The notes under the pieces are model-generated. The model ran no database searches. It saw only the letters and a program-made list of their open reading frames with translations, and was not told the origin of the DNA. Of a stretch of DNA of 25,322 bases, positions 2,120 to 25,322 are shown piece by piece (the first letter of the stretch is position 1; the number at the start of each line of letters is the position of its first letter). Source of the stretch: a virus (lineage: Duplodnaviria > Caudoviricetes); IMG/VR virus record IMGVR_UViG_3300025099_000126, positions 1-25,322 of that record. One strand, 5' to 3'. Position numbers and translations under genes: made by a program.

Positions 2120-4513
2120 ATGATTCAAGGAAATTATAACAGTGGTTTTCCTAGTCAGGTAGTACCTGACGCAGAGAAAATGAGTTTGGAGTACGGTACT
2201 CGCGTAGGTAGAGCTATAGAGTATGAGTGGTTCAGAAGTAATAGAGGTGGTGACAGATTCTCTATGAATTTTGCTAATTTTCATAATTTAAGGTTATACT
2301 CTAGAGGAGAACAATCTATACAAAAGTATAAAGATGAGTTATCTATTAATGGTGATTTGTCTTATCTTAATTTAGACTGGAAACCAGTACCTATTATACC
2401 TAAGTTTGTTGATATAGTCGTAAATGGTATGTCTCAAAGAGATTATGATGTTAAAGCTTATGCTCAAGACCCTGAATCACAAAAGAAAAGAACTAATTAC
2501 GCTGAAGGTTTATTAAGAGATATACAAGCTAGGTCATTTTTGCAAAAAGCAGAAAAAGAAATTGGCATGAATTTATGGACTACATCAGCTCCAGAAAATT
2601 TACCAGAAAATAAAGAAGAGTTAAGTTTACATATGCAGCTTAGCTATAAGCAGTCTATTGAAATAGCAGAAGAAGAAGCTATATCAAACGTAATGGCTCA
2701 AAACAAATATATACAGACTAAAAAAAGAATGCTTCAGGATTTGGTTGTCTTAGGTATTGGAGCGGTTAAAACAAACTTTAACAAGTCTAATGGAATAACA
2801 GTTGAATACGTAGATCCTGCTAATTTAGTATATTCTTATACTGATGACCCTAATTTCCAAGATCTTTATTACGTAGGTGAAGTTAAAATGATACATTTAT
2901 CTGATCTTCAAAAACAATTTCCAGATTTAACACCTGATGAACTAAAAAGAATTGAAAAATTTCCAGGAACACAAAACTACCTTAGAAACTGGAACGAATC
3001 TCCAGATATGGTTGCTGTTTTGTTTTTTGAATACAAAACTTATAGTAATCAAGTATTTAAAATTAAACAAACAGATCAAGGTTTAGAAAAAGCATTAGAA
3101 AAAACAGACTTTTTTAATCCTCCACCTAATGATAATTTTGAAAGAGTATCAAGATCTATAGAAGTATTATATAGTGGCGCTAAAGTATTAGGTATTGATA
3201 ATATGTTATCATGGGGAATGTCACAGAATATGACTAGACCTTTTTCTAATATGACTAAGGTTAATATGAATTACCAAATATGTGCTCCTAGAATGTATAG
3301 AGGGCGTATAGAATCTTTAGTAGGTAGAATAACAGGCTTTGCTGATATGATTCAATTAACACATTTAAAATTACAACAAGTTATAGCAAGGATGGTGCCA
3401 GATGGTGTTTTTGTTGATGTTGATGGTTTAGCAGAGGTTGATTTAGGTAATGGAACAAATTATAATCCACAAGAAGCGCTTAACATGTATTTCCAAACAG
3501 GTTCTATTGTTGGTAGATCTTTAACGCAAGATGGTGATCCTAATAGAGGTAAAGTACCAATACAAGAGCTTCAAACGTCTAGCGCTAATGGTAAAATACA
3601 ATCACTTATAGGTACTTACCAATATTATCTTCAAATGATACGTGATGTAACAGGGCTTAATGAAGCTAGAGATGGTAGCACTCCTGATAAAGACGCTTTA
3701 GTTGGTATACAAAAAATGGCGGCTGCTAATAGTAATACAGCTACACGTCATATATTGCAATCATGTTTGTATTTAACTGTAAAAGCAGCTGAAAACGTAT
3801 CACTTAGAATAGCGGATATGCTTGAGTTTGATTTATTAGCGGATACTTTAAAGAAATCTGTTAGTAATTTTAACGTAGGTACGTTAGAAGAAATGGCTAA
3901 TTTAAATTTATTTGAGTTTGGCATATATCTTGAACTACAACCAGACGATGAAGAAATAGCTAAGTTAGAAGAAAACATACAAGTAGCTTTACAATCAGGT
4001 CAAATATTTTTAGAAGATGCTATTGATATAAGACAAATAAAAAACTTAAAATTAGCTAACCAAATGCTAAAAGTTAAACGTAAAGCTAAACAAAAAATGG
4101 ATCAAGAGATTGCGCAGCAAAATATAGCGGCTCAATCACAGGCTAACATACAAGCGCAAGAAGCATCTGCTTTATATGAGGTTCAAAAGCACGAAGCTAT
4201 GGCGGCTTCAAAATTACAAATCGAACAAGGTAAAGCTGGTTTTGAAATACAAAAAATTGAAAAAGAAGCTCAAATAAAAAAGGAGTTAATGGAGATAGAA
4301 TTTCAGTACCAAAAACAATTAGCTCAAATAGACAAAGGATATATGAGTGCTAAAGAAACAGAAATAGAAGATCGTAAAGATAAAAGAACAAAAATGCAAG
4401 CAACACAACAAAGTGAAATGATTGCGCAAAGAAACAATGACTCAGGTCCTGTAGATTTTGAATCAGGTAATGATAGTCTTGGTGGAATAAACTTAAATGG
4501 CTTTGGTCTTTAA
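2120..4513 (+). CDS. Portal protein
   Basis: 797 aa, abutting the terL stop (TAAATG). LDWKPVPIIPKFVDIVVNGM and IRDVTGLNEARDG segments resemble crAss-like/podovirus portals. Long C-terminal coiled coil. Confidence 0.85.
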   Translation: MIQGNYNSGFPSQVVPDAEKMSLEYGTRVGRAIEYEWFRSNRGGDRFSMNFANFHNLRLYSRGEQSIQKYKDELSINGDLSYLNLDWKPVPIIPKFVDIVVNGMSQRDYDVKAYAQDPESQKKRTNYAEGLLRDIQARSFLQKAEKEIGMNLWTTSAPENLPENKEELSLHMQLSYKQSIEIAEEEAISNVMAQNKYIQTKKRMLQDLVVLGIGAVKTNFNKSNGITVEYVDPANLVYSYTDDPNFQDLYYVGEVKMIHLSDLQKQFPDLTPDELKRIEKFPGTQNYLRNWNESPDMVAVLFFEYKTYSNQVFKIKQTDQGLEKALEKTDFFNPPPNDNFERVSRSIEVLYSGAKVLGIDNMLSWGMSQNMTRPFSNMTKVNMNYQICAPRMYRGRIESLVGRITGFADMIQLTHLKLQQVIARMVPDGVFVDVDGLAEVDLGNGTNYNPQEALNMYFQTGSIVGRSLTQDGDPNRGKVPIQELQTSSANGKIQSLIGTYQYYLQMIRDVTGLNEARDGSTPDKDALVGIQKMAAANSNTATRHILQSCLYLTVKAAENVSLRIADMLEFDLLADTLKKSVSNFNVGTLEEMANLNLFEFGIYLELQPDDEEIAKLEENIQVALQSGQIFLEDAIDIRQIKNLKLANQMLKVKRKAKQKMDQEIAQQNIAAQSQANIQAQEASALYEVQKHEAMAASKLQIEQGKAGFEIQKIEKEAQIKKELMEIEFQYQKQLAQIDKGYMSAKETEIEDRKDKRTKMQATQQSEMIAQRNNDSGPVDFESGNDSLGGINLNGFGL

Positions 4514-4547: not shown

Positions 4548-5747
4548 ATGTCAGAAACAAAAACAAACGATGAAGTGATAGCTGAAAACCCTATTGAAAG
4601 AAGTGGTGAGGTTAAAACTGAAACAAAAGCAGATTACAAGGTTGATTTAAAAACAGGGTCAACAACAAAAAACAAACCATCTACTGTTACAAAGGTGGAT
4701 TTAACTAAAAAACCAAAAGAAGATGCCGTTCAAATCGGAGAAACAAAAGAAGTGGTTGTGGAAGAACAAACCGGAGATAGCCTTAAAATGGACGAACAAG
4801 TACATGAGTCCAGCAAAGCTACTGAAGAGTTTAAACAAATCCAAGAAATAGACGAAAAAGAAGTTAAACAAGTAGAGGCAACAGTAAAAGAAGCAATAAG
4901 AGATGAAAAAGTACTAGGTAAACAATTACCAGAAAACATCGAAAAACTTGTTAATTTTATGGAAGATACAGGTGGCACCGTGGAAGATTATGTCAGATTA
5001 AACGCTGACTACTCTAATGTAGACGGTAGCGCTTTGTTAAAAGAATATTATAAAAAAGCTAAACCACATCTTAATGATGAGGAAATAGGTTTCATCATGG
5101 AAGATAATTTTGAATATGATGAAGAAGTGGACGATGAGCGAGACGTCCGAAAGAAAAAACTTGCTTTTAAAGAAGAGGTTGCAAAAGCTCATAGTTATTT
5201 AGAAGATTTAAAAGGTAAATATTACGACGAAATCAAGTTGAGACCGGGCGTTACCCAAGAACAGAAAAAGGCTATGGATTTTTTTAATCGATATAACGAA
5301 GATCAGCAAATTGCTTCACAACAACACGAGGACTTTAAAACTAAAACTAAAGAATACCTCTCCGATGATTTCAAAGGTTTTGATTTCAAAGTTGGAGATA
5401 AAAATTTTAGATACAATGTTAAAAATCCAAATGAAGTTGCTGAATCCCAGTCAAATATTTCTACGTTTGTTCAAAAGTTTTTGGACAATGACGGAGCAGT
5501 TAAAGACCACGAAGGATATCACAAAGCAATATACGCTGCTAGAAACGCTGATACTATAGCGCAACATTTTTACGAGCAAGGCAAAGCCGACGCTGTTAAA
5601 GATGTAGTGTCTAAATCTAAAAACATTAATAACGAATCTAGGCCACAGCCTACAGGAGACGTTTTTGTTGGAGGGTTTAAAGTAAAAGCTGTTAGTGGTT
5701 CTGATTCTCGTGGACTTAAAATAAAAACACGTAAATTTAACAATTAA
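4548..5747 (+). CDS. Acidic coiled-coil protein, probable capsid scaffold/assembly protein
   Basis: 399 aa, very E/D/K-rich with a low-complexity N-terminus. Lies between portal and MCP. Ends ...FYEQGKADAVKD...GLKIKTRK. Confidence 0.6.
   Translation: MSETKTNDEVIAENPIERSGEVKTETKADYKVDLKTGSTTKNKPSTVTKVDLTKKPKEDAVQIGETKEVVVEEQTGDSLKMDEQVHESSKATEEFKQIQEIDEKEVKQVEATVKEAIRDEKVLGKQLPENIEKLVNFMEDTGGTVEDYVRLNADYSNVDGSALLKEYYKKAKPHLNDEEIGFIMEDNFEYDEEVDDERDVRKKKLAFKEEVAKAHSYLEDLKGKYYDEIKLRPGVTQEQKKAMDFFNRYNEDQQIASQQHEDFKTKTKEYLSDDFKGFDFKVGDKNFRYNVKNPNEVAESQSNISTFVQKFLDNDGAVKDHEGYHKAIYAARNADTIAQHFYEQGKADAVKDVVSKSKNINNESRPQPTGDVFVGGFKVKAVSGSDSRGLKIKTRKFNN
4723..4851 (+). CDS. Putative overprinted 42-aa basic protein in the +1 frame of the scaffold gene (MPFKSEKQKKWLWKNKPEIALKWTNKYMSPAKLLKSLNKSKK)
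   Basis: ATG at 4723 with A-rich leader TAACTAAAAAACCAAAAGAAG, TAG at 4849-4851. Host-frame codons are locally atypical (GCC, ATC, ACC, AGC, TCC). Resembles a small phage MPFKS.KQ..W.W...PE.A..W...Y motif recalled from memory, not searched. Confidence 0.7.
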   Translation: MPFKSEKQKKWLWKNKPEIALKWTNKYMSPAKLLKSLNKSKK

Positions 5748-5758
5748 AATTAACAATT

Positions 5759-7201
5759 ATGGGAATATTAACTCCTCAATTTGGTAGTTTAGTGCCTTCA
5801 CAGTCACAACAGACTTTGGCTAACAACTACTTAAACTTCAACGGCGCTGCTGGTGGAGGAACATTCGCACAACAATACCTTCCTGAAATTTATGAAGCTG
5901 AAGTAGAAAGATACGGTAACCGTACTATCTCTGGTTTCTTAAGAATGGTTGGTGCTGAAATGCCAATGACTTCTGATCAAGTAATTTGGTCTGAACAAAA
6001 TAGATTACACATCGCGTATGATAACGTTGCTTGTAATAAAAATCAAACAATCACGTTACCTGCTGGCGTTACTAACGTACTAGCACCTAACATGACTGTT
6101 GTAATTATGGATCCAGCTAATCCATCTGCTACTGTACATGCTATCGTAGGAAATGGTGCTGCTCAAACAGGAAACCAAACTGCTACAGTTTATCCATATG
6201 TTGCTGCAAACCTTGCTGGTTTATCAGCTACTGGACTAAAACTATTTGTATATGGTTCTGAATTTGCTAAAGGTACTGCTGGTTCTACTGAGAACATCAC
6301 TCCTTCTTTCACGCAATACGCTAACTCACCTATCATTATTAAATCCAATTATCAAATAAATGGATCTGATACTGCTCAAATCGGTTGGGTTGAAGTTGCT
6401 GCTGAAGACGGAACATCAGGGTTCTTATGGTATCTAAAAGCTGAAGGTGAAACTAGATTAAGATTTGAAGATTACTTAGAAATGAGTATGGTTGAAGGTC
6501 AATTAGCTACAGCTGGTTCTGGTTTTACTACTAATCAAAACGCAATACCTGGATTTGGTGGTGCTGCGCCTACAGTTGCTGCTAAAGGAACTCAAGGTTT
6601 ATTTTCTGCTATACAGTCAAGAGGTAATGTACTTGCTGGATACGGTGGAACGTTAACTGATTTTGATTCTATATTACAAAACTTAGATTCTCAAGGTGCT
6701 ATTGAAGAAAACATGCTTTTCTTAGATAGAGCTACAGAGTTACAGTTTGATAATATGTTAGCACAACAAAATTCTTACGGAGCTGGAGGTACATCTTACG
6801 GTGTATTTGAAAACTCTGAAGAAATGGCGTTGAATTTAGGATTTTCTGGTTTCAGAAGAGGTTCTTATGACTTCTACAAAACTTCATGGAAATACTTAAA
6901 TGATGCTTCTACAAGAGGTGGTTCTGGAAACTTCACTGGCGGTGACAACATCGATGGTGTATTAGTACCTGCAGGAACAACTACTGTGTATGACCAATTA
7001 CTTGGTACAAACATCAGAAGACCGTTCTTACATGTACGTTACAGAGCTTCTCAAGCAGATGACAGAAGAATGAAATCTTGGATCACAGGATCTGTTGGTG
7101 GTGCATTTACTACAACTTCAGATTTTATGCAAGTTTCTTTCTTATCTGAAAGATGTTTAGTAACTCAAGCTGCTAATAACTTCGTGTTATTTGTTGCTTA
7201 A
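5759..7201 (+). CDS. Major capsid protein (HK97-fold, crAss-like type)
   Basis: 480 aa, follows the scaffold, has highly-expressed codon bias (GCT, GGT, AAC, TTC) and is followed by a strong terminator. Segments QQYLPEIYEAEVERYGNRT and YGSEFAKGT...PIIIK. Confidence 0.85.
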   Translation: MGILTPQFGSLVPSQSQQTLANNYLNFNGAAGGGTFAQQYLPEIYEAEVERYGNRTISGFLRMVGAEMPMTSDQVIWSEQNRLHIAYDNVACNKNQTITLPAGVTNVLAPNMTVVIMDPANPSATVHAIVGNGAAQTGNQTATVYPYVAANLAGLSATGLKLFVYGSEFAKGTAGSTENITPSFTQYANSPIIIKSNYQINGSDTAQIGWVEVAAEDGTSGFLWYLKAEGETRLRFEDYLEMSMVEGQLATAGSGFTTNQNAIPGFGGAAPTVAAKGTQGLFSAIQSRGNVLAGYGGTLTDFDSILQNLDSQGAIEENMLFLDRATELQFDNMLAQQNSYGAGGTSYGVFENSEEMALNLGFSGFRRGSYDFYKTSWKYLNDASTRGGSGNFTGGDNIDGVLVPAGTTTVYDQLLGTNIRRPFLHVRYRASQADDRRMKSWITGSVGGAFTTTSDFMQVSFLSERCLVTQAANNFVLFVA

Positions 7202-18676: not shown

Positions 18677-21600
18677 ATGAATCAACCAGAATTTTATACA
18701 GCAATTGGTTTTGACGAACCGGTTGATATAAATGAATTAAGTGAAGAAAATAGAAAGTTCTTTTTTGAACAGTTCTCACCTAAACCAGTAAAGAAAAACG
18801 ATCCTGCTGTAAATGCGGAGACCAATGTGGGATCGACAAACAATACGGTCTCACAATCGGTGGATGGTTCTTTGGAATTACAAGAAGCTAAAAAATTAAT
18901 AAAAGAAGATTTATTTAGTAAAGAAAAAAAAGAAAAGCTAACTTTAGAGGCTGACGAGGCGTATAACGCGTTAGAGCAAGATATTTCTAATCAAACCACT
19001 AGAAGAGAGGAGGCTAATCAAGCGACAGAGTTTATGTTTTCAAATATGAGTATGTTTGATAAGTCTTCTTTTAAAGGTCCTTTTAGTGATGAAGACAATA
19101 AAAATGTTTCTAAAGATACTCAAAAAAACACTATATTAAATGACGCGTATTATTATTCTTTAAGTCTTATGGATAAACTTGCGCTTGGTGGTAGAAATAC
19201 AGATGCTGATGGATCAGAAAGAGCACCTTTAACTGAAAAAGATATAGAACAACAAAATAGCAATATTATTGAAGGTAAGAAATTACTAAAAGACAGTAGA
19301 GAGGTTAAAAATTTTAATTTACTTAAAAAAAATAGAGAACAAGTAGCTATAGACGCGTTACAGTCGCAAAACAATAAAAACATTTCTGACGAACAAGTGT
19401 TAGATTATGTAGATAAAAACAAAGAAGACGAAAATTTTAAAACAAGTGTTAAAGATTTTTTTGTAAAAGGCTATATAAAAGAAAGGCAAAAAGAAGCCAT
19501 AATAGAACGTAATAAAAAAGAATCTGGCTGGGATGGTTTTACAGAAGGTGAAAATCAAAATAGATTAGAAGAAGCCGCTGCTTTAGTTTCTAGTAGTTTA
19601 GACGAAGAAGCTCAAAGTAACATAGCCACATCTGTAAACATAGATTCTAAAATACAAAAAATTGAGCAATCACTAAAGTCTTTGCAAACTTTAAGGCCAA
19701 AAAATCAAGAAGAAGCTGATTTAATAATAGAGCAAGCGGGTTTATTTATAAAAGAAAGACAAGGACTAGTTAATGCTTATGGTGAATTAGTTAATAAGCA
19801 AATAGAAATAGGTACTGAAGCAAAAGACATTAGAGGTTACTTAGACACTGTTAGTCGTAACCAAGGTTGGTTAGTAAACCCTATTGGTGCTTTAGTAGGC
19901 GGTGTATATGATTTTGTTAATAACGTTGACGAATTTGTAGATAGACTTAGTTATACTCCTTTTGAAATGGCTGCTGATTTAATTAAAGTTAAAACAGATG
20001 AAAATTCTTGGCTTCACAAAGGTGTATTAGCTATGGAAGGATTAGAAAAAACTAATTTTGGTGTTGATACAGCTATAAAAAACATGAGAAACGGTTTAGC
20101 AGAACCTATAAGTGTTACTGACATAAACAATTGGAGTGACATGTGGCAGTGGAGTTCTTATTTAGTAGGATCTCAAGCAACAAACACAGCTGTCATGTTA
20201 ACAACAGGTGGTTGGGCATTACCATTGTTAGGCGCAAGCTCAGCAGGTGCTTCGTTTAACAGTATGCAAGAAGAAATAGACTTGTATGGAGCTGAATACA
20301 CGCCTCTTCAAATGTATACAGTTGCTTTAGGTAGTGGTTTAGCAGAAGCTTTAAGCGAAAGAATAACTTTAGGTCAATTAAATAGAATAAAAAGAGGTTT
20401 AGCGGCTAGTAAAAAGTCTTTAAAACAAGGTACTTTTGATTACATTAAAAGCTTGTCTACAAGTAAAGGTAGAAAAAATGCTGCTTTAGGAGCTTTTGTA
20501 TATGGTAAAGAAACTTTTGAAGAAGGTTTTACTGAATCTGTAGCTGGTTTTTCACAAAGAGCTTTAGAAAGATATGTGTTAGGTAAAGATGTTGACCTGT
20601 TTGAAGGTATGTTAGACGAGTTTGTGTCTGGAGCATTTATGAGTGGTTTTGTTTATAAAGCACCAGGTTTAGGTATTAAAATGTATAGAGCGTTTCAACC
20701 ACCTGATTCTAACGAAGCAATAGGTAAGATTCAGACAAGAATGGACGAAATAGGTAACATACTTATGAACAATCCTTCTATGGATATTCGTGTTAGAAAA
20801 AAATTAGAAGACGAATTACAAGAAGGTGCTACTAAAGTTCAGCAGATAATGTCTAGGGATTTTAAAAACATGGACAAAATGACTCAGCAAGAGCAGAGTG
20901 ATTTAATGAAAAAAGAAGATCAAATATATAAGTTGAGACAACTGTATGACGCTACTCTTAATGATAATACTATAAACGAAAAAGATAAAACAGATATATT
21001 AAATAGTTTAAATGCTGAGTTTAAATCTATAAGAAACGACAAGGTAAAAATATTATCTGAAGTTAATGTAAGAGAAGAAATAGCTTTAGCTCAAAAGCTA
21101 GGCAAGGAAACAGGTAGAACAGATTTTGGTGACAACGCGGTTGGAACAGGTCAAGCTGTAGAAGTTGTAGAAGATGACGCTGCTTTTATGGAAATGACTA
21201 AGATAAAAGAAACAGGTGTTGAAGGTACTGAGTTAGATAATGGTCAAATAGTTCTTAACAAAGCTCAAATGCTTGCCTCTGCTATGCGTAACGATGGTAA
21301 TATAGGTACTGGTATACATGAGGTTTTACATAAAGTATTAAAATCTGAATTTAGTAGTAAAGATCCAGCAAAAGCTAAAAAATTAAAAGACCAATTTTTA
21401 AAAGTACTAAAATCTGAAAATAAATCAATACATGATTTAGTTATAGCTAGAGCTGATGCAAATTACAGTCCAGATTATTTAGAAAAAAATCCTGATGAAT
21501 ACATTACAATATTCGCTAGTGTATTAAAAGAAAACAATATAGAGTACAGCCAAGCGACAGATAGTGTGTTTAAAAAATTAGCTAACTTTGTTGGTGGCTT

Positions 21601-24600
21601 ATTTAGTAGTAAATTAGATGTTGATCCAAACGACTTTAAATTTAAAGACGGTAAAGATTTATATAACTTTGTTCAAACATATGTTAAAAACACTTCTGAG
21701 GGTAAAATATCTGACAGAGCTAAAAAGCTAGCAGATGCAGGTAAAGATATTACAACTGATATTAAACTTTCTAAAAATGCTTCTGACACTGTTCAAGAAA
21801 TATTTGAAACTAAAGGTAAAGATGGTGCTTTTGAAATAATAGAACAATACAGAGGTATGGCTAATAAGTTGGCTAATAAATACCAAAACGTACCAGGCTT
21901 TGAAAGACAACTACTTGTTGACGAAATACTAACAGGTAAACGTGGTGTTATAGATATGATAAACGAATATAAAGCAGACACTAATGTTCCTTTAGCCGCT
22001 TATATAAATAAATTTTTATCATCAAGATCTATAGAAGCTGCTAATAGAGTTTTAAAACAAGAGTTTGAAACTGATGTCACAGAGGCTAAAGCAGTTGTAG
22101 CTAAAGAAGCTTCTACAGAAGTTGAAGCAGAAACAAAAGCTAAACCAAAGCCTAGGTTAAGAAAAGATTTAAAGTTACAAGATGATGTTATAGACAAAAT
22201 TAAAAACGCTGTAATCAAAACTTTTGGAACTAAACTACCTAGTGTTAAATCACCTCAGTTTAAAAAAGAACTAGAAAAACAATTTAAAACAGAACTAAAA
22301 CCTGTTATAGCTAAATTGATGGGTAGAACTGATAGTTACGAAACTTTTTTAAGAGATAATTTTGAAGCTATATATAAAGCATTGCCTCAAGAAATAATAA
22401 ACAAAAGATTTAGAGACTTTGCAGATCCTGTAATGAAAGACGGTAAACAGGTAAGAGAAAAGACAGCGCAAGGTAATGCTGTTTTTACTAAGAAAAAAAT
22501 TACTAAAGCTGAATTTATAAAATACTTTTTAGGTTCTGATGTAGGTAGATCAACTCAAGGAACTAGAAAAACTGCATTAGCAGAAGCATTAGCTCAAGAG
22601 TTAGCCTTAGACGCTACTATGGAAGTCATACAAAACCCAGGTGTGTTAGAAAAAGCTATAGCTATATCTAACCTAGTAGATGGTGACTTTACTATAGAAG
22701 GAGTTTCTTTAAGTATAAAAAGACCTAAAGGCGTTAAGTTCTCTAAAGTTGAATTAAACGACTTTAATGACGATGTGGCTGATCAATTAACTTTAACCAA
22801 CGCTTTTCAAAGTGGTCCTTTTAACACTGTTAAGCTACAACAGTACAATAGTCAAGCACTTAATTATAAAAAATTATTAAAAGATCTAAATGTTGAAGGT
22901 TTTGATATGAAAACTGCCAAAGGTAGAAAACAGTTTTTAGATTATGCTTATACTCGCAATATGATAACTAAATTTCCTAAAGCTTTCTGGAGAAGTATGC
23001 AAGGAACAACTGATGACGCTGTTTTAGATCCAAATATTCGTTCTAAATCTGAATCACAGTCCGATACTGGTTACCAAATTTCTATGCAAGAATTAGACGA
23101 AGCTGGAAATATAGTGTCAATTGGTTATGATGTAGATACGTTTGACAGTAGTACTTTAAGAGATTTTGCTGGTAACTTACCTTTTAGAAGTGTAACAGAA
23201 GCAGACGCTTGGATAGATCAAATTGAAAATGGAGAATATGAAATAGACGGTGTAATACAACCTGCTGTTAAGTTTGCAAACGAAAATTCTATTAGTCCTA
23301 ATATGATGGCTGCTTTGTCAAGCACAAAGTACACCAACATGAAAGAAAATGGCAAACAAAGTTTTAACAAAATAAAAACTAGTAAGTTTCAAGCTGAGCA
23401 AGACAAATCAATAGATGGGTTAAAAGAAATATTTTTAATATTTGAGCAAGCTATTAAAGATGATAAAAACGCGGCTGCTTTTGTTGCGGCTATATTATCT
23501 TCTACAGCTTCTAATCAAGGTCATTTCATGAGAACATCTGCGCCTATTAGATTTTTTACAACTAATTTGCAAGCTGGGCCAAAAGGAATAAAATTTGTAG
23601 AAGAACACAGCTTACCAGCCTCAAGTGTTGCTAAGTATTTATTTGCATTAGCTATAAACGGAACAGTAGAATCTAAATTTGACGGCGTTAAAAACAATTA
23701 TTATCAAGGCGCGATAAATAGCATAGATGATAAGAAATTAAAAGGAACAATGTTAAATGGTGAAAAGTTTAACTATGGTTCTGTAATGCCTTTAGGTTGG
23801 ACTATAAACGACCAAACATGGGCTAGATACTTTAATATTAACGTAGGTAATACAAGAGGAGGTATTGATCCTGCTAAAATAATATGGAACGACGGTAAAA
23901 GTATTGCTGAAAAAACAGGCGTTAATTCATATGGCTTTATAGCTAAAGGAGAAACTAAAATTACCGAAAAAGAAGCAAAAACTCAAAACGGAAAGCTGTC
24001 TAGAAATATACCAGTCGATGCTTCTATTAGTAAACAAGTTGAAATAATGTCTAACATGGATAAAACCATGAAGCTTGCTAGAAACATTAATACACCTGAA
24101 AAGGGTATCAGTGTGTTTGACTTTGACGATACTTTAGCTAGAACAAGCAGCAAAATTATAGTAACCATGCCTAACGGTAAGGTTATGAAAATTAACGCTA
24201 CTGAGTTTGCTAAAAGAGACGCAGAGCTTACAGCGAAAGGAGCTAAGTATAATTTTAGCGAATTTAATAAAGTTATTAATGGCAAAAAAGGACCACTTGC
24301 TGATTTAGCATTAAAACGTCAAGGTAAGTTTGGTAGTAAAGATATATTTGTATTAACAGCTAGACCACAAATAGCAGCTGATGCAATTAAAAAGTTTTTA
24401 GACGGTATAGGATTAAGTCTACCTTTAGAAAACATTACAGGTTTAGAAAACGGAACACCACAAGCAAAAGCTGATTGGGTTTTATCTAAAACAGCTCTAG
24501 GTTATAATAATTTTTATTTTGCTGACGACGCAATTAAAAATGTTAAAGCAGTTAAACAAATACTAGATCAAGTTGATGTTAAGTCAAAAGTTCAAATAGC

Positions 24601-25322
24601 TAAATTTAGTAAAGCATCAAACCTCAATAAACAGTTTAACGACATTATAGAAGACGCAACAGGTATTGCTAATTACAAAAACTTTTCAACAGCAAGAGCA
24701 AGAACTTTAGGTAGAGGTAAAAGTGCGGGTTGGTTTATACCTCCTCAAGCTGAGGACTTTGTAGGTTTATTGTATCCTTTATTAGGTAAAGGCAAAACTG
24801 GTGACGCAGGTATGAAGTTTTTTAAAGAAAACTTACTAGATCCTTTTAATAAAGCTGAAAATGCTTTAACACAGGCTAAAATATCTGTAGCTAATGATTT
24901 TAGAGCTCTTAAAAAACAATTTAAAACTATACCTAAAACTCTCAAAAAAGAGGCTATGGATGGTTTTACATATGGAGACGCTGTAAGAACTTATATATGG
25001 TCTCAACAAGGTATGGAGATACCTGGTTTATCAAAAAGAGATGGTGTTGAATTAATTTCGTTTATAGAAAACGACATAGAGCTAAAACAGTTTGCTCAAG
25101 GTTTACAAATGATACAAAAAGATAGAATGTATCCTGAACCTGATGAGTCTTGGTTGTCTGGAACTATTACAACTGACATAATAGGAGGTATAAACAATGT
25201 TGTAAGAAAAGATTATTTACAAGAGTGGGAACAAAATATAGATATTATATTTTCACCTGAAAATCTAAATAAATTAGAAGCTGCTTACGGTCAAAACTAT
25301 AGAGAAGCTTTAGAAAATATTA
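18677..25322 (+). CDS. Giant multi-domain (polyvalent) virion/ejection protein, 3'-partial, at least 2215 codons
   Basis: ATG at 18677 (MNQPEFYTAIG...). Segments I translated are all in one frame and no terminated + ORF is listed here, so it appears to run off the window. Contains Gly/Ala hydrophobic helices (~20180-20680), HEVLH (21317-21331), a sigma-like segment (~21833-22055), EEHSLP (23600-23617) and HAD motifs DFDDT/LTAR/K/FADD (24119-24529). Confidence 0.85.
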   Translation, partial: MNQPEFYTAIGFDEPVDINELSEENRKFFFEQFSPKPVKKNDPAVNAETNVGSTNNTVSQSVDGSLELQEAKKLIKEDLFSKEKKEKLTLEADEAYNALEQDISNQTTRREEANQATEFMFSNMSMFDKSSFKGPFSDEDNKNVSKDTQKNTILNDAYYYSLSLMDKLALGGRNTDADGSERAPLTEKDIEQQNSNIIEGKKLLKDSREVKNFNLLKKNREQVAIDALQSQNNKNISDEQVLDYVDKNKEDENFKTSVKDFFVKGYIKERQKEAIIERNKKESGWDGFTEGENQNRLEEAAALVSSSLDEEAQSNIATSVNIDSKIQKIEQSLKSLQTLRPKNQEEADLIIEQAGLFIKERQGLVNAYGELVNKQIEIGTEAKDIRGYLDTVSRNQGWLVNPIGALVGGVYDFVNNVDEFVDRLSYTPFEMAADLIKVKTDENSWLHKGVLAMEGLEKTNFGVDTAIKNMRNGLAEPISVTDINNWSDMWQWSSYLVGSQATNTAVMLTTGGWALPLLGASSAGASFNSMQEEIDLYGAEYTPLQMYTVALGSGLAEALSERITLGQLNRIKRGLAASKKSLKQGTFDYIKSLSTSKGRKNAALGAFVYGKETFEEGFTESVAGFSQRALERYVLGKDVDLFEGMLDEFVSGAFMSGFVYKAPGLGIKMYRAFQPPDSNEAIGKIQTRMDEIGNILMNNPSMDIRVRKKLEDELQEGATKVQQIMSRDFKNMDKMTQQEQSDLMKKEDQIYKLRQLYDATLNDNTINEKDKTDILNSLNAEFKSIRNDKVKILSEVNVREEIALAQKLGKETGRTDFGDNAVGTGQAVEVVEDDAAFMEMTKIKETGVEGTELDNGQIVLNKAQMLASAMRNDGNIGTGIHEVLHKVLKSEFSSKDPAKAKKLKDQFLKVLKSENKSIHDLVIARADANYSPDYLEKNPDEYITIFASVLKENNIEYSQATDSVFKKLANFVGGLFSSKLDVDPNDFKFKDGKDLYNFVQTYVKNTSEGKISDRAKKLADAGKDITTDIKLSKNASDTVQEIFETKGKDGAFEIIEQYRGMANKLANKYQNVPGFERQLLVDEILTGKRGVIDMINEYKADTNVPLAAYINKFLSSRSIEAANRVLKQEFETDVTEAKAVVAKEASTEVEAETKAKPKPRLRKDLKLQDDVIDKIKNAVIKTFGTKLPSVKSPQFKKELEKQFKTELKPVIAKLMGRTDSYETFLRDNFEAIYKALPQEIINKRFRDFADPVMKDGKQVREKTAQGNAVFTKKKITKAEFIKYFLGSDVGRSTQGTRKTALAEALAQELALDATMEVIQNPGVLEKAIAISNLVDGDFTIEGVSLSIKRPKGVKFSKVELNDFNDDVADQLTLTNAFQSGPFNTVKLQQYNSQALNYKKLLKDLNVEGFDMKTAKGRKQFLDYAYTRNMITKFPKAFWRSMQGTTDDAVLDPNIRSKSESQSDTGYQISMQELDEAGNIVSIGYDVDTFDSSTLRDFAGNLPFRSVTEADAWIDQIENGEYEIDGVIQPAVKFANENSISPNMMAALSSTKYTNMKENGKQSFNKIKTSKFQAEQDKSIDGLKEIFLIFEQAIKDDKNAAAFVAAILSSTASNQGHFMRTSAPIRFFTTNLQAGPKGIKFVEEHSLPASSVAKYLFALAINGTVESKFDGVKNNYYQGAINSIDDKKLKGTMLNGEKFNYGSVMPLGWTINDQTWARYFNINVGNTRGGIDPAKIIWNDGKSIAEKTGVNSYGFIAKGETKITEKEAKTQNGKLSRNIPVDASISKQVEIMSNMDKTMKLARNINTPEKGISVFDFDDTLARTSSKIIVTMPNGKVMKINATEFAKRDAELTAKGAKYNFSEFNKVINGKKGPLADLALKRQGKFGSKDIFVLTARPQIAADAIKKFLDGIGLSLPLENITGLENGTPQAKADWVLSKTALGYNNFYFADDAIKNVKAVKQILDQVDVKSKVQIAKFSKASNLNKQFNDIIEDATGIANYKNFSTARARTLGRGKSAGWFIPPQAEDFVGLLYPLLGKGKTGDAGMKFFKENLLDPFNKAENALTQAKISVANDFRALKKQFKTIPKTLKKEAMDGFTYGDAVRTYIWSQQGMEIPGLSKRDGVELISFIENDIELKQFAQGLQMIQKDRMYPEPDESWLSGTITTDIIGGINNVVRKDYLQEWEQNIDIIFSPENLNKLEAAYGQNYREALENI
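18784..18891 (+). other. Candidate programmed -1 frameshift cassette giving a Cys-rich alternative C-terminus (..EKRSCCKCGDQCGIDKQYGLTIGGWFFGITRS*)
   Basis: The -1 frame is open between TAA 18781-18783 and TAA 18889-18891 with no start codon. A_AAG at 18790-18793 (G_AAA_AAC at 18793-18799), then an 8-bp stem GATCCTGC/GTGGGATC (18800-18834, two G-U pairs). Local GC elevation. Confidence 0.5.

Follow-up and report, generated by a model that had tools for sequence, protein, structure and literature searches.

The window analysed here is the whole 25,322-nucleotide stretch of a viral record (IMGVR_UViG_3300025099_000126), a 25.3-kb fragment that is about 39% complete. On its plus strand, a portal gene (2120..4513; phrog_6547, E 1.9e-140) and a major capsid gene (5759..7201; phrog_13704) enclose a gene for a 399-aa scaffold-like protein (4548..5747), referred to below as the host gene, while further downstream a giant gene (18677..25321), which in relatives serves as an alternative nesting host, is cut by the window end. 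Entirely inside the host gene, in its +1 frame, lies an ORF of 42 aa on the same strand (4723..4851), the only match to the MPFKS family in the source record. The cultured phages nearest to the window are the Bacteroidota phages Maribacter phage Panino, Elemovirus and Calle/phi38:1, with major capsid proteins of Panino, Elemovirus, Calle and phi38:1 being 36–49% identical to that of the window, and by sequence similarity the source phage is an Elemovirus/Pervagoviridae-like Bacteroidota phage.

The nested ATG and the following CC are formed from the host codons GAT GCC, and a TAA in the nested frame (4702-4704), six codons 5' of the ATG, opens an A-rich leader (4702..4722). The first-pass annotation had described the ORF with this translation, its own ATG, an A at −3, the A-rich leader, the upstream TAA and a strong basic charge, all of which are present exactly as claimed; only the regular spacing ascribed to its Trp residues is wrong, as these stand at positions 11, 13 and 23. 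The peptide carries a net charge of +11 (13 K/R) as opposed to −8 for host residues 59–101. Its conserved module spans approximately residues 1–28 and is followed by a Lys-rich tail; the predicted fold is a two-helix hairpin (helices 6–15 and 17–28) with the tail modelled at low confidence. A spanin or lysis gene of the Rz1 or E type was considered and rejected, as the sequence contains neither Cys nor a hydrophobic run.

AlphaFold assigns a pLDDT below 50 to nearly all of residues 1–123 of the host protein, its acidic and predicted disordered N-terminus (4548..4916), whose coding sequence runs across the nested gene; the remainder is modelled with a helical core. The position between portal and capsid genes, the acidic character and the helical core are those of a scaffold-type protein, and the homologues in Elemovirus and phi38:1 are annotated as 'structural protein'. 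Since a PHROG search of the host protein and a PDB search with its structure model returned no match, the scaffold label is taken from gene position together with the predicted core, from which we infer a scaffold-like function. No further nested gene was found in the window 3' of the MPFKS gene, nor a second family copy in the part of the giant gene that the window contains. A +1 ORF near 5110–5202 that recurs in relatives was dismissed as a shadow, with conserved host sequence beneath it and ordinary third-position variation. Two related scaffolds of 424 and 421 aa (L055 and L061) have an extra +1 ORF of the MKKIILTR type (39–40 aa, host codons 113–157), which does not occur in the window.

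Among the related scaffold loci compared (the best 80 of 600 scanned, 54–99% identical), 70 keep a stop-free +1 ORF of 36–52 aa beginning MP(F/I), so that the conserved ATG and open +1 frame on which the first-pass annotation had staked its claim are found in most relatives. These 70 loci yield 54 distinct peptides, and the scaffold-nested subtypes are MPFKSEKQ, MPFKHKRQ (subtype B), the Cys-bearing MPFKSKxQMKAC and MPI(K/Q)SKKQ. The ORF is absent from nine scaffolds, which are shorter (374–386 aa). At the one remaining locus (L020), a subtype B peptide has a Thr codon in place of the ATG at about host codon 38, and this copy is either decaying or uses a non-ATG start. When 54 scaffolds were aligned (that of the window and every other one of 106 representatives), +1 stops occurred at rates of 0.001 and 0.000 per codon across host codons 61–90, compared to 0.015–0.16 in all other 15-codon windows. 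The counts of 0 stops in 2,250 codons and of ATG-CC in 67 of 67 genes are circular, because the ORFs were chosen by those same features, and were not relied on.

The two frames differ in how they are conserved. In the overlap, amino acid identity is 80–88% in the +1 frame and 62–68% in the host frame, and the nucleotide differences fall mostly at host codon position 1, the wobble position of the +1 frame. For 59 of 67 distinct genes, belonging to four subtypes and compared over their first 27–32 codons (two genes with an insertion and six from two small subtypes were excluded), pN/pS in the +1 versus the host frame was 0.25/1.06 (n = 30 sequences), 0.12/1.64 (n = 17), 0.23/1.31 (n = 7) and 0.14/5.88 (n = 5), figures that are descriptive pairwise rates and not independent, because the sequence pairs share ancestry. 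In the host core, the pattern is reversed (pN/pS 0.09–0.16). The contigs of three RNA libraries, each from a different study, agree in that all four listed variants inside the ORF are silent in the +1 frame and change the host protein; the contigs cover the nested ORF in three of four runs (not X10), show 76 further differences in the stretch and do not in themselves prove transcription, strand or translation. Judged from these substitution patterns, the nested frame is under purifying selection while the host frame drifts there. The comparison between frames that had been proposed as a check therefore falls clearly on the side of the nested frame (0.12–0.25 vs 1.06–5.9), and together with the disordered host N-terminus it bears out the suggestion that the nested coding shapes the acidic linker of the host protein.

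The start of the nested gene resembles a genuine start as well. An A occupies positions −3, −11 and −13 in 83, 98 and 93% of nested starts (n = 54), in 100, 81 and 96% of the true gene starts of these phages (n = 103) and in only 35, 35 and 26% of other +1 ATGs (n = 912); across relatives the nested leaders are enriched in A at −3, −5, −8, −11 and −13, like the phage's own gene starts. Of 185 Lys, Glu and Gln codons immediately 5' of the nested start, 179 have A as their last base, as against 78–85% elsewhere. One study describes Flavobacterium as being without Shine-Dalgarno sequences and A at −3 as a positive determinant of initiation (PMC6847099). A Shine-Dalgarno-like motif precedes six of the 17 copies nested in giant genes, and the start region in the window is not unusually unstructured (−4.2 vs −5.1 kcal/mol background). 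By the composition of its leader, the nested gene has an initiation signal of its own, like the true starts of the phage, and the ATG would likely be translated from this A-rich start on the late head mRNA to give the 42-aa basic peptide.

The statement in the first-pass annotation that such peptides occur in many phages as a small ORF or N-terminal module proved right. A profile search returned 3,222 representatives at 50% clustering, in free-standing and fused forms, so that the search for homologues, whose outcome could have spoken against the gene, uncovered a large phage family. MPF stands at the start of 133 of 146 newly listed representatives, and 53 of the 146 are at least 150 aa long. 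Most of these long fusions have no known domain, and a few carry lysozyme or DUF6321; elsewhere in the family, fused partners also include a PBCV basic adaptor domain and tape-measure-like motifs. Just behind the module, 35 of the 53 carry an xGG motif, and repeated xGG motifs are common in the long module-first proteins among P0141–P0283; as a speculation, they are possibly protease sites. Free-standing copies were found in P-RSP2, C75C1, 023Pt_psg01, S-CBS2 and FlowerPower, several of them surrounded by further tiny K/R-rich genes or situated next to head genes. Three of these five, in P-RSP2, C75C1 and S-CBS2 (L081:4001, L082:4001 and L300:5001), are unannotated in the GenBank records, and other tiny K/R-rich ORFs cluster around the free-standing copies at L082, L083, L546 and L548. 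Within the inspected set of gene neighbourhoods, which excludes the cluster B mycobacteriophage copies near 60 kb, most phage copies are found inside structural genes or next to them. A nesting rule applied to three pattern samples, with 120 viral loci in each, classed 117, 35 and 66 loci as nested; the 'free' class includes some scaffold loci that are truncated, and in the second sample roughly seven of the loci classed as nested have short, GC-rich frames possibly open by chance. In prokaryote genomes, 22 of 43 family matches are free-standing in soil Acidobacteriaceae-type contigs, and no phage genes were recognised among the ORFs nearest to these copies. The members on these 22 contigs (L550–L586) have strong Shine-Dalgarno sites, and three lie just 5' of a 274-aa gene that we take to be Ku-like from its appearance. 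A literature search of incomplete coverage, which did not include the Elemovirus paper, returned no description of the MPFKS family or its nesting.

A distant form of the family occurs in 486 actinophage records. PHROG_1375, which includes gp10 of mycobacteriophage Patience and gp9 of Barnyard, shares the F(K/R)S.(K/A)Q...(F/W)A....A.KW module and the basic tails; unlike the window gene, its actinophage members are free-standing, and the module follows an N-terminal basic extension. The link is weak: of 49 aligned peptides, 20 matched it with E-values no higher than 0.1, the best being 2.5e-6, the window's own peptide had no PHROG match, and in the reverse direction the actinophage members score 13–22 bits. 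Patience gp10, which matches PHROG_1375 at 1e-31, is distant from the family profiles (13.4 and 8.2 bits), yet its score exceeds those of all 2,000 shuffled sequences with one profile and of 1,999 with a second. Patience gp4, counterpart of the Adjutor capsid accessory protein, is a small head accessory protein in phages with an MPFKS-family homologue (PMC11965321), but it was set aside as a relative of the window peptide, as it gives no score on either profile and is not among the fold matches; the homologue in Patience is gp10. The nearest neighbours in the ESM Atlas point to DUF3008 (PF11450), with values of 0.83 for the window peptide and 0.90 for the homologue P0093 and clusters containing 15% and 37% DUF3008 members, but a Pfam search gave no DUF3008 match and the resemblance is weak, a lead only. 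Sequence and fold searches of solved structures with the nested peptide gave nothing usable (best E 0.92; best Z 3.1), and of the BFVD matches, all of them to proteins that are unnamed or uncharacterised, none reached E < 0.001.

The nested gene is not bound to the scaffold-like gene. In Elemovirus and in a Manatee Spring phage, the scaffold lacks the ORF, and a copy of the Cys subtype lies instead in the +1 frame of the giant gene. A family match is present in 68 records of the cultured Elemovirus, where the giant host is a virion gene of 3,694 aa. In one of these giant genes (L168:1105-1137, NC_055853.1), a truncated duplicate of 10 codons followed by a stop lies 396 nt 5' of the intact copy, as though the gene had been duplicated or had moved inside its host. 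Exactly one profile match was found in each of 18 positive genomes, and in five genomes that carry the giant-nested form the scaffold lacks the ORF. Three contigs with gene-free scaffolds show no copy elsewhere, though these contigs are partial and absence is not established, and Panino, phi38:1 and phi13:2 have no family match. Twelve loci of the second pattern sample have host frames that are open for more than 500 codons upstream, at 32–66% GC; of ten hosts scanned, most have no match, and one each matches DUF3293, a polyvalent ADP-ribosyltransferase (weakly), an internal virion protein and a structural protein of the virion. Polyvalent phage proteins are thought to be packaged, according to PMC5512222. 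In all, several unrelated genes act as hosts, and every nested copy overlies a linker, be it predicted or apparent.

Closely related scaffolds may differ in the version they carry. The cores of L014 and L027 are 94.5% identical, and the two genes are nearly identical up to ATGCCATTCAA and contain different subtypes beyond it, while L024 with the gene and L043 without it are 93.9% identical. The giant gene of Elemovirus holds a cassette that shares 86% identity over 125 nt with one nested in a scaffold. In a tree of 117 scaffold cores, built by a quick method, the subtypes are clustered but interleaved, and strongly supported branches force at least six changes of subtype A, at least four of subtype B and at least four of absence. 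Near-identical scaffolds with swapped or lost versions are best explained by capture and recombination, the direction of which is inferred, as the tree is unrooted. The nested gene was thus probably captured from an existing gene, a reading favoured because the same subtypes are free-standing in unrelated phages and nested elsewhere. Under this reading, an existing small gene would have recombined into the disordered linker of the scaffold-like gene; its Lys/Trp-rich codons, read one base back, would give an acidic Glu/Gln/Val spacer tolerated by the host protein, and the conserved start ATGCCnTTyAAr could have served as the crossover point for later allele swaps.

Three other accounts of the reading frame itself have to be weighed. 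That the ORF is a mere shadow, a by-product of host-frame conservation, draws on the fact that acidic Glu/Lys-rich frames often leave the +1 frame open: given host protein and codon usage, an open frame is expected by chance at a median of 0.08 and up to 0.37 per locus, and 9% of 36-codon +1 windows in the host core are open, for which reason a single genome is weak evidence and it is the comparative data that establish the gene. As synonymous resampling of the host frame predicts only about 5 open frames in 54, and as the +1 frame is more conserved than the host frame in the overlap with changes at the +1 wobble position, this account is refuted for practical purposes, and the ORF at 4723–4851 is almost certainly a real gene. 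A programmed frameshift or slippage, producing a fusion of the scaffold N-terminus and MPFKS with no separate protein, could exploit the A-runs in the leader, and predicted fusions of this kind exist in the database (e.g., P0011, P0041, P0050, P0051, P0135); these, however, stem from single contigs with differing junctions and look, from their sequences, like indel errors, whereas the ATG is kept, free-standing members share the same first Met and the start-type leader favours separate initiation, which leaves frameshifting improbable. De novo overprinting, with the peptide born in the scaffold linker and the free-standing copies later or convergent, would fit subtype B, of which no copy was seen outside a host gene, and the Cys-bearing subtype, for which 117 of 120 viral loci are nested. 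The family is nevertheless far wider (actinophages, cyanophages, Acidobacteriaceae), the scaffolds of distant relatives are without the gene, and the equivalent of the host frame is usually closed in free-standing copies (open in 21 of 60 and 3 of 41). A product restricted to the overlap is ruled out by the free-standing and differently nested homologues, and 'overprinted' in the de novo sense, as the first-pass annotation had it, is a still less probable description than frameshifting.

As to function, we lean, with some reservation, towards a selected gene for a late, virion-packed DNA-binding peptide, based on sequence traits and neighbourhood. The helical hairpin and Lys tail would bind the packaged genome and neutralise its charge, as a minor internal core protein; the gene is small, basic and encoded between portal and capsid genes, in line with core proteins, and the host genes of nested copies are virion-type. 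Patience gp10 is listed among the virion proteins and expressed (PMC4324244, Table 1 and Table S1), and its tiny K/R-rich neighbours gp11, gp12, gp17 and gp111 are well detected in particles according to the same tables and text. The same source gives gp10 itself one spectrum in particles, while its basic neighbours have 30–124, and four and two spectra in infected cells at 30 min and 2.5 h, respectively (PMC4324244). These counts, higher in infected cells than in particles, speak for a peptide whose target lies in the infected cell, be it host nucleic acid, the ribosome or a defence system, as do the very different subtypes replacing one another on near-identical scaffolds, as though by host-driven turnover, the cellular copies and the weak DUF3008 resemblance; the structural neighbourhood of most inspected phage copies and the purifying selection within each subtype argue against it, and we regard it as rather unlikely. 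A little less doubtful is a capsid-targeting tag that docks on the procapsid interior or core and carries fused cargo into the head. The prevalent MPF start, the long fusions with their partners and the xGG motifs behind the module would suit such a tag, but it is hard to see what a tag without cargo, as in the window, would serve for, members of the family occur in phages whose capsid proteins and hosts are unrelated, the actinophage module sits behind a basic extension rather than at the N-terminus, and chromosomal copies exist. The latter, free-standing in Acidobacteriaceae-type contigs, fit DNA binding and do not fit a virion-only role. The gene seems dispensable, given the scaffolds without it, the ATG-lost locus and the lack of a match in Panino, phi38:1 and phi13:2.

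Small genes with their own start, fully embedded in another gene in a shifted frame, are familiar from lambda Rz1 in Rz and phiX174 E in the scaffolding gene D, both lysis genes with a fixed partner gene. E likewise lies inside a scaffolding gene, but the window peptide is basic, soluble and nested in several unrelated hosts. The internal proteins of T4 are small, basic, late proteins packed in the head, and its capsid-targeting sequence is a short N-terminal motif common to different cargo; the MPFKS product, as a putative head protein, is likened to them by these traits. In tailed phages, the members of a nested pair are usually viewed as fixed partners that arose by overprinting. Inside genes 91 and 20 of Patience lie out-of-frame embedded ORFs whose translation was seen by mass spectrometry (PMC4324244); they are ambiguously conserved or not conserved and have no database relatives, in contrast to the strong selection and large family of the MPFKS gene.

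Embedded phage genes are therefore already known, and what is unusual here is that one gene occurs free, fused and nested in different hosts, with allele swaps. It is tempting, if clearly tentative, to see in MPFKS a portable dual-coding cassette of about 130 bp that repeatedly enters the disordered linkers of unrelated late virion genes, one per genome and across phages of diverse hosts, swaps alleles via its conserved 5' end, and may act as a widespread virion module that binds the genome and loads fused cargo. Many annotated phage proteins contain an acidic 'linker' motif, D/N-A-I/V-Q..., that is the shadow cast by an overlooked gene, and as the nested form is present in a cultured system, represented by the Elemovirus records, its expression and function are directly testable. 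The family, with its free, fused and nested members, offers a natural series for how overlapping genes arise by capture.
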